Part shown: piece after piece, positions 33,969 to 51,109 of the stretch | Numbering within the stretch: position 1 is the stretch's first letter | How the letters are laid out: each line of letters starts with the position of its first letter | Assembly: GCA_018303825.1 (NCBI GenBank) | Contig: JAGVXK010000007.1 | Coordinates: 10,094 to 74,093, forward strand | Length of the DNA stretch: 64,000 nt | Reading direction: 5' to 3' | DNA from: Candidatus Pacearchaeota archaeon | GTDB taxonomy: Archaea > Nanobdellota > Nanobdellia > Pacearchaeales > GW2011-AR1 | Program-made: the position numbers and the translations under genes | The notes under the pieces: model-generated | Database searches by the model: none | Told to the model about the DNA's origin: nothing | Seen by the model: the letters and a program-made list of their open reading frames with translations, nothing else

Positions 33969-35204
33969 TTATTTCAACCAATGTTTCTTTAGCTTCTGAA
34001 ATTTGCCTGCTTTTATGCTTTTTCTGATTTGTTCAAGGAGATTCAGCATGAAATGGAGATTGTGGATTGTTGCTAATTTTGCATAGTCATTATTGTTGTT
34101 TTTTTCTTTTGCCAATCTATATAGGTCTGCTCTTGTATAATGCTTGCATGTTGAGCATCTGCAATTCTTGTCGATTTTAGTTTTGTCATTCTTGTATCTT
34201 CCTTTTACTATTTTTATGGTAAATTTATTTTCTTTATTTCCTCCAGATTCCAGGCTTATGTATAATTGCTTGTGCCTTGCTATTCTTGTCGGATGAACGC
34301 AGTCAAAGGTGTCAATGCCACGGGAAACACACTCGAATAGGTCATCTATCCAGCCTATGCCGAGCATATGAACTGGTCTATCGTCCAAATACTGAGAAAT
34401 CCAGTCAATGATTTGATGCATTGCTCTTTTTGAATCTCCATATGATTCTCCAAAACTTCCGCCTATTGCAATTCCATCAAAAGGCAGGGAAGAGATGAAT
34501 TTAGCGCTCTTTATTCTTAAATTCTTAAATTGTCCTCCCTGAATTATACCATATAATGCTTGTTTTGGATTGTGGTATTTTAATGAAAGAACTGCCCATT
34601 TATTTGTTCTTGTCAAGGCAGTTTTTTGGTATGAAAAGGATTTGTTTGCAGGAGTACATTCGTCAAAAGCCATGATTACATCACTTCCAAGGTTTGATTG
34701 AATCTTCATTGATTCTTTCGGACCTATAAAGTGCAGGGAATTATCATAGACTGACTTGAATTGGATTCCTTTATCAGTTATTTTAACGAAAGAAGGTTTT
34801 TTTTCATTTTTTAATATCATTTTCTCTCTTTCTTGATTTTTTCCGAGTTTCGTATAACCTGTTCTTTTTGCTTCTCCCAATGAAAGTGTTTGGAATCCCC
34901 CAGAATCTGTGAAAATAATTCCTTTAAAGTCCATGAACTTATTTAGTCCTCCAGAGTTTTTTATTAGTTTATCTCCTGGTTTAAGGTGAAGATGATATGT
35001 GTTTGCCAAAATACACTTTATGTTTAGGTTTTTTATGTCTTTCTTGTTTAGGGCTATAATTCTTGCTTTTGTTGCAACTGGAATAAGATAAGGGGTTTCA
35101 ATCTTTCCGCTTTTTGTTTTTAGTATTCCTGTCCTTGCCCTGCTTCTTTTGTCTCTGGCAGTTATCTTAAACGACAGTGGAGATTCTTTCTTTTTAGTTA
35201 TCAT
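33969..35204 (-). CDS. tgt: Bacterial-type tRNA-guanine(34) transglycosylase
   Basis: ANTYHL..PG, TDSGGFQ, MAFDEC, GIIQGG, HMLGIG, GIDTFDCV.PTR.ARH, Zn site CRCSTC...H. Confidence 0.93.
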   Translation of the reverse strand: MITKKKESPLSFKITARDKRSRARTGILKTKSGKIETPYLIPVATKARIIALNKKDIKNLNIKCILANTYHLHLKPGDKLIKNSGGLNKFMDFKGIIFTDSGGFQTLSLGEAKRTGYTKLGKNQEREKMILKNEKKPSFVKITDKGIQFKSVYDNSLHFIGPKESMKIQSNLGSDVIMAFDECTPANKSFSYQKTALTRTNKWAVLSLKYHNPKQALYGIIQGGQFKNLRIKSAKFISSLPFDGIAIGGSFGESYGDSKRAMHQIIDWISQYLDDRPVHMLGIGWIDDLFECVSRGIDTFDCVHPTRIARHKQLYISLESGGNKENKFTIKIVKGRYKNDKTKIDKNCRCSTCKHYTRADLYRLAKEKNNNNDYAKLATIHNLHFMLNLLEQIRKSIKAGKFQKLKKHWLK

Positions 35205-49223: not shown

Positions 49224-50318
49224 TTATTTAAGTCTTATTTCTCCGCCGCCAAGACAAACATCTTTATTGTAAAGAACAAGGTGCTGACCTTCTGCTATGC
49301 CTGAAACGGGCTTTGATAATGTGAAGATATAATTATTTTTTACTTTTTTTAATTTTCCAGGTAATAAATTTCCGAGGTGTCTTATTCTTGCTTTTAATTG
49401 ACTTGGAATTATTTGAGTATTGTTAATTAAATGAATATTTTTAATTATTATTTGTGATTTTTTTAACAACTCGTGGTCTTCCGGAACAATTATAAGTGTG
49501 TTGGGCTTTTGCTTCTCAGCAATATACCATTTTTTATTGTCTTCTTTTGGCCTTTGAAAATTAATTCCTATGCTTTTGTGTGCTCTCTGCCCAATAGTGT
49601 AATAGAAAATACCATCATGTCTTCCTATTACATGGTTGTTTGGGTTTTTAACTATTCCTGCTTTACGTTTTATTCTTTTTTCAAGGAAAGATTTCATGTT
49701 TTGTTCTCCAATAAAGCATATCCCAGAAGTGCCGTGCTTGTTCCAATTTGGAAATTTCAGTTTTTTTGCGAGATTTCTGACTTCATTCTTTTTTAGGTTG
49801 CCAATTGGGAATAAAGTGTGTTTTAAAATATCTTCGGATAGTTCATACAGAAAGTAGCTTTGGTCTTTTGTTTTATCTTTTCCAGAAAGTAATTGATAAC
49901 CTGACTTGATTTTTTTTATTCGAGCATAATGGCCTGTTGCAATAAAATCTATCTTTCTTTTCTTTGCTTCTTTTAATAACCAAGGGAATTTAATTATTTT
50001 ATTACATGAAATATCAGGGTTTGGTGTTCTTCCTGATTTGTATTCATTAAACATTAGTTTAACTACTTGGTTTTTATATTGTTTTTCTAAATCAAGAGTT
50101 ATAAAAGGAATTTCTAATTCTGTGGCTATTCTAATTGCCATTTGTCTTTCTTTTCTCCATACGCATTGGTTTGTTAATGGGTCTTTTGTGTCTGAGAAGC
50201 ATTTTAGAAAACAGCCCATTACATCATATCTTTGTTTTTTTAATAAATAAGCAGCTATAGATGAATCTACTCCACCAGACATGCCAAGCAAGACTTTTGG
50301 TTTTAGTTGTTTATTCAT
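49224..50318 (-). CDS. mnmA: Bacterial-type tRNA 2-thiouridine(34) synthase
   Basis: GMSGGVDSS PP-loop, PNPDISCNK.IKF, ATGHYARI, KDQSYFL, GICFIG, YTIGQR, GQHLVLY. Confidence 0.95.
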   Translation of the reverse strand: MNKQLKPKVLLGMSGGVDSSIAAYLLKKQRYDVMGCFLKCFSDTKDPLTNQCVWRKERQMAIRIATELEIPFITLDLEKQYKNQVVKLMFNEYKSGRTPNPDISCNKIIKFPWLLKEAKKRKIDFIATGHYARIKKIKSGYQLLSGKDKTKDQSYFLYELSEDILKHTLFPIGNLKKNEVRNLAKKLKFPNWNKHGTSGICFIGEQNMKSFLEKRIKRKAGIVKNPNNHVIGRHDGIFYYTIGQRAHKSIGINFQRPKEDNKKWYIAEKQKPNTLIIVPEDHELLKKSQIIIKNIHLINNTQIIPSQLKARIRHLGNLLPGKLKKVKNNYIFTLSKPVSGIAEGQHLVLYNKDVCLGGGEIRLK

Positions 50319-50352: not shown

Positions 50353-50497
50353 CGTCCCCTGGAAGATTCGAACTTCCGACCCTCTGATTTCTCTAAAGGC
50401 CTACCATCAGTAAGTCCAACTTCTAACAGTCAGATGCTCTACCGGTTGCTCCCTTCCTAACATTTTATTGTCGTGGAAAAGTCTGAGCTAAGGGGAC
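50353..50497 (-). tRNA. tRNA-Asn (GUU) with two introns (15/16: 50446-50482; 37/38: 50389-50423)
   Basis: Removing 37 nt and 35 nt gives a canonical 73-nt cloverleaf GTCCCCT-TA-GCTC-AGCCGGTA-GAGC-A-TCTGA-CTGTTAA-TCAGA-GGGTC-GGAAG-TTCGAAT-CTTCC-AGGGGAC-G. Confidence 0.9.
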
Positions 50498-50584
50498 AAA
50501 TTCATCTAATCCTAAGACTAAATGATTATTAAGAATCTGATAGTAGTTATTTAAAGCTTTTGGGATTACCATATATTGTCGCAA

Positions 50585-51109
50585 TTACTTTCCTTTCTTG
50601 TCTTTCTTTAGGCCGAGGTCATCTGGGAATTTCTTCTTTTCAGCGTTCATCCTTTCAAGGAAGTTATATACATTTGACTGCTTTGAGCCACGTATTAGGT
50701 TTGTCAGGGCAGTTATTACCTCTTGCATCAAATCTGCGGGAGCAATTATGCCTATATCATTTCCTCTTATTGCTAAATGTGAGAGGGTAATGTTTTCTAT
50801 TGCTCTTTTTGTTTTTCCCTCTGTGCCTATCAATCTTGCTCTAACATCCTCAAGCTTTTTTCTATGTGTGAATTTCTTTATATTAATATGTTGGAATAGA
50901 ATATCCTGGTCTTTCAACATTAGGGCTTTTTTTGCTGAAAAACCAAAATTAATTGCTTCAAGAACTATCATTGCTTCATATTCATCTACCGCTTCTCCAG
51001 AAATGTCCGCTTTTTTGCCGGTTATAGTTATTGAGACATTTAGCTTGTCTTCCAGTTCTTTCTTGTTTTTCTTTAATTCTTTTGTGCTGTTAAAAATTAG
51101 TGTTTCCAT
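50585..51109 (-). CDS. KH-domain ribosome biogenesis protein (Dim2/Pno1/Krr1 family)
   Basis: EAINFGFS, RARLIGTEGKTKRAIENIT, LIRGSKQSNVY. Confidence 0.9.
   Translation of the reverse strand: METLIFNSTKELKKNKKELEDKLNVSITITGKKADISGEAVDEYEAMIVLEAINFGFSAKKALMLKDQDILFQHINIKKFTHRKKLEDVRARLIGTEGKTKRAIENITLSHLAIRGNDIGIIAPADLMQEVITALTNLIRGSKQSNVYNFLERMNAEKKKFPDDLGLKKDKKGK

Follow-up and report, generated by a model that had tools for sequence, protein, structure and literature searches.

The stretch of DNA analysed here, a 64,000-nt window from contig JAGVXK010000007.1 of a Candidatus Pacearchaeota genome (GCA_018303825.1), carries a tRNA-Asn(GUU) gene that is interrupted twice, once in the D-loop and once at the canonical intron site of the anticodon loop. 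Coordinates are positions in this window unless a contig is named, the gene is read on the minus strand, and the segment 50200-50650 was inspected. The genome comprises 806 kb in 23 contigs with 34.5% G+C and is 86% complete. The gene and its parts are arranged as follows.

50353..50497, minus strand: tRNA-Asn(GUU) gene with three exons and two introns, 145 nt, giving a perfect cloverleaf after in silico splicing
50483..50497, minus strand: exon 1, 15 nt, tRNA positions 1-15 (5′ strand of the acceptor stem, U8 and A9, 5′ strand GCUC of the D-stem, A14 and G15)
50446..50482, minus strand: intron 1, 37 nt, in the D-loop between positions 15 and 16, with an HBh′ motif
50424..50445, minus strand: exon 2, 22 nt, tRNA positions 16-37, including the anticodon GUU (50425-50427)
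50389..50423, minus strand: intron 2, 35 nt, at the canonical site 37/38
50353..50388, minus strand: exon 3, 36 nt, tRNA positions 38-73 (3′ strand of the anticodon stem, variable loop, T-arm, 3′ strand of the acceptor stem, G73)

When the three exons were joined by script and submitted to ARAGORN, a 73-nt tRNA-Asn(gtt) was returned in which all pairs of the acceptor stem (7/7), D-stem (4/4), anticodon stem (5/5) and T-stem (5/5) are formed. The ARAGORN drawing of the spliced sequence is a class I cloverleaf with the anticodon GUU, in which U8, A14, G18 G19, U54 U55 C56 and the pair G15-C48 are present, together with the T-loop TTCGAAT, the discriminator G and the GG of the D-loop. A preliminary description of the window, made from its letters alone, had proposed a tRNA-Asn(GUU) gene with two introns, one of 37 nt at 15/16 and a canonical one of 35 nt; its coordinates and sequence details hold, the in silico splice is perfect, and the pattern is far beyond chance. 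That description had named another intact tRNA-Asn gene, together with a lack of expression of this copy, as an observation that would speak against it; a search of the 86%-complete genome of 806 kb revealed no second tRNA-Asn.

Intron 1 forms a motif of the bulge-helix-bulge (BHB) type in which the intron supplies its own partner for the 5′ strand of the D-stem. Its elements are located as follows, a slash within a bulge marking the splice junction.

50485..50488, minus strand: exon strand GCUC of the central helix H of intron 1 (tRNA positions 10-13), four of four pairs with GAGC at 50448-50451
50448..50451, minus strand: intron strand GAGC of the central helix, followed by the bulge AA/C; the end GGAGCAA is invariant in the BLAST-derived relatives, for whose choice no pattern was used
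50452..50481, minus strand: inner helix h′ of intron 1 with its apical part, 50476-50481 pairing with 50452-50457

The exonic GCUC pairs with intron nt 32-35 at all four positions, and the bulges on either side of this helix are 3 nt each, A14 G15/A on the 5′ strand and AA/C16 on the 3′ strand. Intron nt 2-7 and 26-31 form an inner stem of six base pairs, CTTTTC with GGAAGG, which includes two G-U pairs. No pairing that could provide an outer helix is possible beyond the second bulge, and the motif therefore belongs to the relaxed HBh′ class rather than to the strict hBHBh′ class. The earlier proposal of a D-loop motif built with the intron's own GAGC, with the bulges AG/A and AA/C and with the outer helix missing, is thus borne out, the inner stem being taken here as six base pairs. 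In its minimum free energy (MFE) fold (z = −3.0), the complete 145-nt precursor contains a hairpin built from the GCUC-GAGC helix and the inner stem, besides the acceptor stem and the T-arm.

We compared the gene with its counterparts in a set of 61 genomes, consisting of this genome and 60 related ones. A BLAST search of the 145 nt against the 60 relatives recovered the two-intron gene in other genera, with 70-80% identity over the full length in three of the relatives (G025, G019 and G029), and some of the matches carry the first intron only. When the matches were aligned by eye, the D-loop intron was seen to start with AC and to end with GGAGCAA in all of them, and the canonical intron was absent in three. 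A search with exon 2, followed by parsing of the matches in the 61 genomes, made a tRNA-Asn recognisable in about 52, of which 10 (this genome and nine others) have the D-loop intron and about 41 are without it. The gene of the KH-domain protein arCOG04150 is located upstream of tRNA-Asn in intron-bearing and intronless relatives alike, which indicates that the loci are orthologous and differ in the presence or absence of the intron. The roughly 41 intronless orthologues read GCTCAG-YN-GGTAGAGC, with G15 and Y16 without exception and with the same D-loop length of 8 nt, and the mature D-loop junction predicted in the preliminary description matches them at this syntenic locus. An intron present in 10 and absent in about 41 readable related genera also provides a clean natural system for studying the gain and loss of BHB introns.

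These orthologues bear directly on the position of the D-loop junction. With no outer helix, the second bulge is bounded by a helix on just one side, and RNAfold draws a 5′ bulge of 4 nt and not of 3 nt; one could therefore envisage that the relaxed motif is read differently from the 3-4-3 rule and that the junction is displaced from 15/16 by one or two nucleotides, as at 14/15 or 16/17. A junction shifted by +1, however, would place A at position 16 and one shifted by −1 would place A at position 15, and the presence of G15 and Y16 in all of the intronless genes fixes the junction at 15/16 and excludes a one-base shift. In addition, G15 can form the Levitt pair with C48 in this tRNA. We consider a displaced junction very unlikely.

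The distribution of the D-loop intron was examined further by scanning one genome for each of 185,579 species with a pattern that fixed the bulges and the first pair of the inner stem but not pairs 2-6. The scan identified 53 loci in 53 species genomes, nearly all of which are labelled Woesearchaeota, Pacearchaeota or Nanoarchaeota. Forty-nine of the 53 unique sequences are tRNA-Asn(GTT) genes with perfect acceptor (7/7) and T (5/5) stems, the remaining ones being tRNA-Thr(CGT), tRNA-Arg(TCG) and one unparsed tRNA found at two loci (L023 and L051). Numbered from the junctions, pairs 2 to 6 of the inner stem of intron 1 occur in 52, 50, 49, 51 and 39 of the 53 sequences, respectively, and up to six types were observed per pair, including UA, UG, CG, GC and AU, which is the mark of compensatory changes. 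None of 2000 shuffles matched the observed pairing values.

The same data were used to weigh the possibility that the 37-nt insert is kept in the mature RNA as an expanded D-arm, or that the locus is a decaying pseudogene and the working tRNA-Asn comes from the unassembled 14% of the genome. The genome is indeed incomplete, and annotators display inserts of this sort as enlarged D-loops (bioRxiv 10.64898/2026.10.13.758758). The exons, however, are intact in all 49 tRNA-Asn loci, the BHB geometry is kept while compensatory changes are confined to the inner stem, and a single match of the tRNA-Asn type (ending in CTGTTA) was found in nearly all of the 61 genomes, every intron-bearing one included. 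Furthermore, a 37-nt hairpin in place of the partner strand of the D-stem would destroy the elbow formed by G18/G19 and the T-loop. Retention of the insert or decay of the gene is thus very unlikely, and the reading of the locus as a working gene from which the insert is spliced is preferred.

Some further features of the scanned loci were recorded. The apical sequence TAAAA of intron 1 occurs in 23 of 49 sequences, compared with about 3 expected from shuffles, an excess that kinship may explain. Introns at 15/16 of the same geometry (AC...GGAGCAA) are present in tRNA-Thr(CGU), tRNA-Arg(UCG) and another tRNA at the loci L026, L048, L023 and L051, in metagenome-assembled genomes (MAGs) that bear the label Aenigmatarchaeota or Woesearchaeota; the inner stems of these introns show no sequence relationship. 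Two short contigs with a two-intron tRNA-Asn, L045 (JAMWDA010000214.1) and L047 (DATEBV010000104.1), are assigned to MAGs with the labels Omnitrophota and Chthoniobacterales; these bacterial labels are probably the result of misbinning.

Intron 2 lies at the site where archaeal introns are expected, and its motif also departs from the strict form. The central helix is composed of C32-U35 (CUGU, 50426-50429) and AGAG (50391-50394, intron nt 30-33), with three of four pairs formed and an internal G-G opposition; the bulges are U36 A37/G and AA/A38, and the anticodon stem constitutes the outer helix. The inner helix beside the bulge is only 3 bp long and is followed by an inner hairpin. Intron 2 is therefore relaxed too, in that h is present, h′ is short and H contains one mismatch, and the earlier account of a 35-nt intron with a relaxed CTGT-AGAG helix and one G-G mismatch stands. 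Among 29 relatives carrying the canonical intron, the central helix has four of four pairs in 19 and three of four in 7, this gene included. The intron itself is sporadic across the relatives, with a length of 0 to 77 nt, and those that lack it read CTGTTA-A directly, which is the predicted 37/38 junction. An inner hairpin ending in GGTAGG was seen in 13 of the 29 sequences, and here again kinship may be the explanation.

The combination of the two introns conceals the gene from commonly used tRNA finders. On native DNA, ARAGORN with default settings called no tRNA at the locus, and a search with Rfam gave no match there at the gathering threshold, the tRNA model yielding an 18.2-bit partial match that covers positions 9-63. 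ARAGORN run with introns allowed returned a nonsensical tRNA-Ser(act). Removal of intron 2 alone resulted in no call, and removal of intron 1 alone led ARAGORN to misplace the second intron and to call a tRNA-Ser(aga). The suspicion voiced in the preliminary description that standard scans could miss the gene was well founded for these programs, which either miss it or mislabel it as tRNA-Ser. The intron models of tRNAscan-SE 2.0 were trained on Crenarchaeota/Euryarchaeota and Thaumarchaeota. ARAGORN and the Rfam tRNA model do not see the sole tRNA-Asn gene of this genome, nor that of at least 53 related species genomes, and such MAGs would therefore be scored as being without an essential tRNA.

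Taken at face value, the ARAGORN output on the construct from which intron 1 had been removed would make the gene a tRNA-Ser(AGA) with an anticodon-loop intron at 33/34. The variable loop, however, is 5 nt without a long arm, as in class I tRNAs; the loop of the relatives without the canonical intron reads CTGTTAA; a junction at 33/34 does not fit the 3-4-3 BHB, whereas one at 37/38 does; and tRNA-Ser genes with a long arm (GGA, CGA, GCU and UGA) are located elsewhere in the genome. We regard a serine identity as exceedingly improbable, and the gene is treated as tRNA-Asn(GUU) in what follows.

The genome encodes what would be needed to process such a precursor. The gene for the splicing endonuclease EndA (contig C2 of this genome, 2098-2613) is located about 7.5 kb before the window and specifies a protein of 170 amino acids (aa), in which PF02778 matches residues 3-65 (37-39 bits) and PF01974 matches residues 77-162 (90 bits); the score against TIGR00324 is 95.6 bits, with a cut-off of 59.6. 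The Tyr/His/Lys triad aligns with the triad positions of 1a79 and 3iey_A, and the nearest solved structures are those of the N. equitans catalytic subunit (3iey_A, E = 2.8e-31), M. kandleri EndA and the alpha4 enzyme of M. jannaschii. No second EndA-like open reading frame or beta partner was detected in the 86%-complete genome by phmmer, a clade profile, PF02778 or the NCBIfam beta model NF007085. Exactly one PF01974 match was found in 59 of the 61 genomes, and the corresponding frames are 163-228 aa long, except for one 83-aa frame at a truncated match. The ligase RtcB (C3:2618-3868, 538 bits) and an archaeal RNase P RNA (C11:29639-29964, 135 bits) are also encoded, and the splicing pathway is thus complete.

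The protein sequence of EndA was inspected for the loops by which the enzyme types are distinguished, with the definitions (CSL/L1, ASL/L2 and NEQ-type/L3, CSL being the Crenarchaea-specific loop) taken from PMC3488258 and PMC5829648. Residues 9-170 align with M. jannaschii EndA (1a79) with a single one-residue gap and no insertion, and the stretch between the catalytic Tyr and His, which is K/R-rich across the clade, is 6 residues shorter than the corresponding loop of N. equitans NEQ205. The C-terminus (...EVSWQKP) is conserved in the clade and aligns with ...EVSWKKP of NEQ205, where M. jannaschii has Y; going by alignment position only, its Trp may correspond to the Trp near the C-terminus of the catalytic subunit that serves broad-specificity EndAs as a second residue for RNA recognition (PMC3488258). 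Judged by its sequence, the enzyme would be of the alpha4 type, a single polypeptide with an N-terminal domain and a catalytic C-terminal domain, and it is presumably a homotetramer. The classification of EndA, which the preliminary description had listed as a check, thus yields one 170-aa alpha-type gene with no detectable beta partner and no loop insertion.

The maturation of the transcript that we envisage would proceed as follows. A precursor of about 145 nt plus leader would be transcribed, in which each intron presents a BHB. In the D-arm, the intron's own GAGC and the exonic GCUC would make up the central helix of 4 bp, bordered by the 3-nt bulges and continued by the inner stem-loop; in the anticodon arm, the anticodon stem would serve as the outer helix, C32-U35 would pair with intron nt 30-33, and the 3-nt bulges would hold the 37/38 junctions. 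EndA would cut two nucleotides into each bulge and RtcB would join the three exons, after which the exon's own GAGC (22-25) could take over the D-stem. The leader would be removed by RNase P. The excision itself, the order of the cuts and the action of a single EndA in both jobs are inferred.

We conclude that the locus is, with high probability, the functional and apparently the only tRNA-Asn(GUU) gene of a small-genome DPANN archaeon of the Pacearchaeota/Woesearchaeota type, and that it contains two introns spliced by EndA and RtcB. Several points weigh against this conclusion. The splicing and the exact junctions are deduced from DNA only, and a second tRNA-Asn or a partner of EndA could be located in the unassembled part of the 86%-complete genome. 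The bulges and the first pair of the inner stem are not independent evidence in the 53 loci, which were selected by a pattern containing them. The BHB of the canonical intron is thermodynamically weak: it is absent from the MFE fold, and the anticodon-arm segment has a z score of 0.06. Finally, the D-loop motif has no outer helix, and the sole EndA is without the CSL, ASL and NEQ-type insertions that have been tied experimentally to the cleavage of relaxed motifs (PMC3488258, PMC5829648).

The architecture of the gene is of an already known kind. Multiple and non-canonical tRNA introns were reportedly described in Thermoproteales and other Crenarchaeota by Sugahara et al. in 2007 and 2008 and by Marck and Grosjean in 2003. 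The preliminary description had stated that they are known mainly from Thermoproteales and ARMAN-type archaea, which is correct as far as it goes but incomplete: disrupted tRNA genes together with an alpha4-type EndA had already been noted in Pacearchaeota and Woesearchaeota (PMC5829648). According to the text on Figure 7 of that paper (Kaneta et al. 2018), an alpha4-type EndA in Pacearchaeota/Woesearchaeota goes with a larger number of disrupted tRNA genes, and tRNA sets could not be completed owing to unidentified disrupted genes. The DPANN EndAs of Kaneta et al. resemble the present one in lineage and enzyme type; they are reported to contain an "L3" loop, whereas the EndA described here has no insertion in the Tyr-His length relative to M. 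jannaschii. No tRNA-Asn 15/16 intron is specifically described in the portion of that text considered (PMC5829648).

A close parallel in gene structure is the pre-tRNA-Glu(UUC) of Methanopyrus kandleri, which likewise contains two introns, one in the D-loop with an HBh′ motif and one at the canonical 37/38 site, and whose mature form is spliced in vivo, the canonical intron probably being removed first (Kaneta et al. 2018, PMC5829648). It is a different tRNA, however, and its D-loop site is at about 20/21 (a fragment starts from A21) as opposed to 15/16 here (PMC5829648); moreover, M. kandleri is a hyperthermophilic euryarchaeon and not a member of DPANN, and it uses an (alpha-beta)2 heterotetramer, in contrast to the single alpha-type EndA gene found here. 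Thermoproteales and Crenarchaeota share with the present gene the occurrence of non-canonical BHB introns, up to three per gene, which are often HBh′ or hBH and are missed by standard finders (PMC4090602), but their EndA is an (alpha-beta)2 enzyme with the Crenarchaea-specific loop. The crenarchaeal non-canonical introns are seen as recent gains by transposition; in contrast, the intron described here sits at a single site of one tRNA and recurs at the orthologous locus across many genera.

ARMAN-2, likewise a member of DPANN, has tRNA genes with multiple introns and with introns at non-canonical sites, and its BHB motifs are relaxed (PMC3239211, PMC3488258). It differs in having a three-unit epsilon2 EndA with the ASL loop and introns at 53/54 and 59/60 (Fujishima et al. 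2011, PMC3239211; Hirata et al. 2012, PMC3488258), whereas the EndA of this genome is a 170-aa single unit and a non-canonical intron occurs in one of about 42 tRNA genes. D-arm introns of Asgard archaea resemble the present one in that they are overlooked by tRNAscan-SE, are often relaxed and were found by means of compact orthologues, but they belong to another phylum with a much higher intron density and an (alpha-beta)2 EndA with the L1 loop (bioRxiv 10.64898/2026.10.13.758758). The known picture of archaeal tRNA splicing is unchanged by our findings. What is new here is the clade-wide conservation of the intron at an orthologous locus and the mismatch between a relaxed motif and a plain single-subunit EndA.

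A conserved module is located in the 5′ leader of the gene, and two of its elements are listed below.

50502..50525, minus strand: leader hairpin of 10 bp, located 4 nt 5′ of G1 (z = −4.4; none of 200 shuffles folds as well)
50548..50556, minus strand: TATA-like box CTTTAAATA of the tRNA-Asn leader, its position assigned by reading and the transcription start inferred

The module as a whole (50502-50556) consists of a B recognition element (BRE)/TATA-like sequence, CCCAAAAG-CTTTAAATA, a conserved spacer, the 10-bp hairpin and AUUU just before G1. It is present in 23 of the 53 loci with the D-loop intron and in none of the approximately 41 intronless relatives. With the 10-bp helix supplied by hand, RNAalifold itself having given only 4 pairs on the leader, 81% of the cells are paired, compared with 30-48% in slid controls. 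The G-U pairs of the helix favour a putative RNA hairpin on the tRNA strand. Three other readings were tried and discarded: removal of the leader by EndA, through the leader hairpin and a BHB with the trailer, would require pairing of −6 to −3 with C72, G73 and the trailer, which is absent, and an RNase P RNA is present; pairing of the leader with exon 2 is based on a 5-nt complementarity that is restricted to this genome and that the relatives do not share; and a C/D-box or K-turn in the leader or in intron 2 finds no consistent boxes. The TATA-like box of tRNA-Asn is about 25 nt further from its gene than the boxes of the other tRNA genes in the genome. Upstream of most of the latter, TATA-like boxes (CTTTAAAA, TTTATAA) occupy a constant position, about −35 to −27 relative to the mature 5′ end, which suggests that the leaders of most tRNAs are very short or absent, although RNase P RNA is present.

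The preliminary description had taken both introns to imply an endonuclease of broad specificity. As a deduction from the two motifs this is reasonable, and strict hBHBh′ specificity of this EndA is made less likely by the HBh′ substrate encoded alongside it; the sole EndA, however, is a single alpha-type enzyme and belongs to neither of the architectures for which broad specificity was shown experimentally. To our knowledge, nobody has shown broad specificity for the single-subunit EndAs of DPANN archaea. It was suspected by Kaneta et al. 2018 (PMC5829648), and the tRNA-Asn gene offers a concrete natural HBh′ substrate with which the question can be addressed. It is conceivable, and we put it forward tentatively as somewhat less probable than its opposite, that a plain alpha4-like EndA with neither a beta partner nor a loop of CSL, ASL or NEQ length removes an HBh′ D-loop intron across a large Pacearchaeota/Woesearchaeota clade, that the intron is old and vertically kept, and that the leader and the apical UAAAA hint at a role in maturation beyond mere tolerance. 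If true, the removal of the intron by a plain EndA would break the textbook link of enzyme architecture and specific loops to the cleavage of relaxed motifs.

The remaining tRNA genes were surveyed for the same intron, as had been suggested at the outset. About 42 tRNA genes are present in the genome, nine of which contain introns, and none besides tRNA-Asn has a non-canonical one. A scan with T-arm and acceptor features and an Rfam search at E values up to 10 detected no further tRNA with a non-canonical intron and no tRNA-Glu in the assembly. Two genes with canonical introns were mislabelled by ARAGORN run with introns: tRNA-Trp(CCA) at C22:76982-77065, with a 13-nt intron and a perfect CUCC-GGAG helix, and tRNA-Ser(UGA) at C20:24736-24838, with a 20-nt intron.

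In archaea equipped with ArcTGT, the archaeal tRNA-guanine transglycosylase (TGT), archaeosine occupies position 15, here the G15 that precedes the D-loop junction, and the preliminary description had remarked upon this coincidence. The remark finds no support in this lineage. The sole gene of the TGT family, at 33969-35204 on the minus strand, is of the bacterial type that acts on G34 in queuosine formation (TIGR00430, 402 bits, over the cut-off); it scores 128 bits against the TgtA (ArcTGT) model, for which the cut-off is 350, and none of the 61 genomes has a TgtA match over the cut-off. tRNA-Asn(GUU) would instead be a candidate for queuosine at position 34.

The tRNA-Asn gene is flanked on one side by a bacterial-type MnmA, the tRNA 2-thiouridine-34 synthase (49224-50318, minus strand), and on the other by the universal archaeal KH-domain protein arCOG04150 (50585-51109, minus strand), whose adjacency to tRNA-Asn is conserved across the order.

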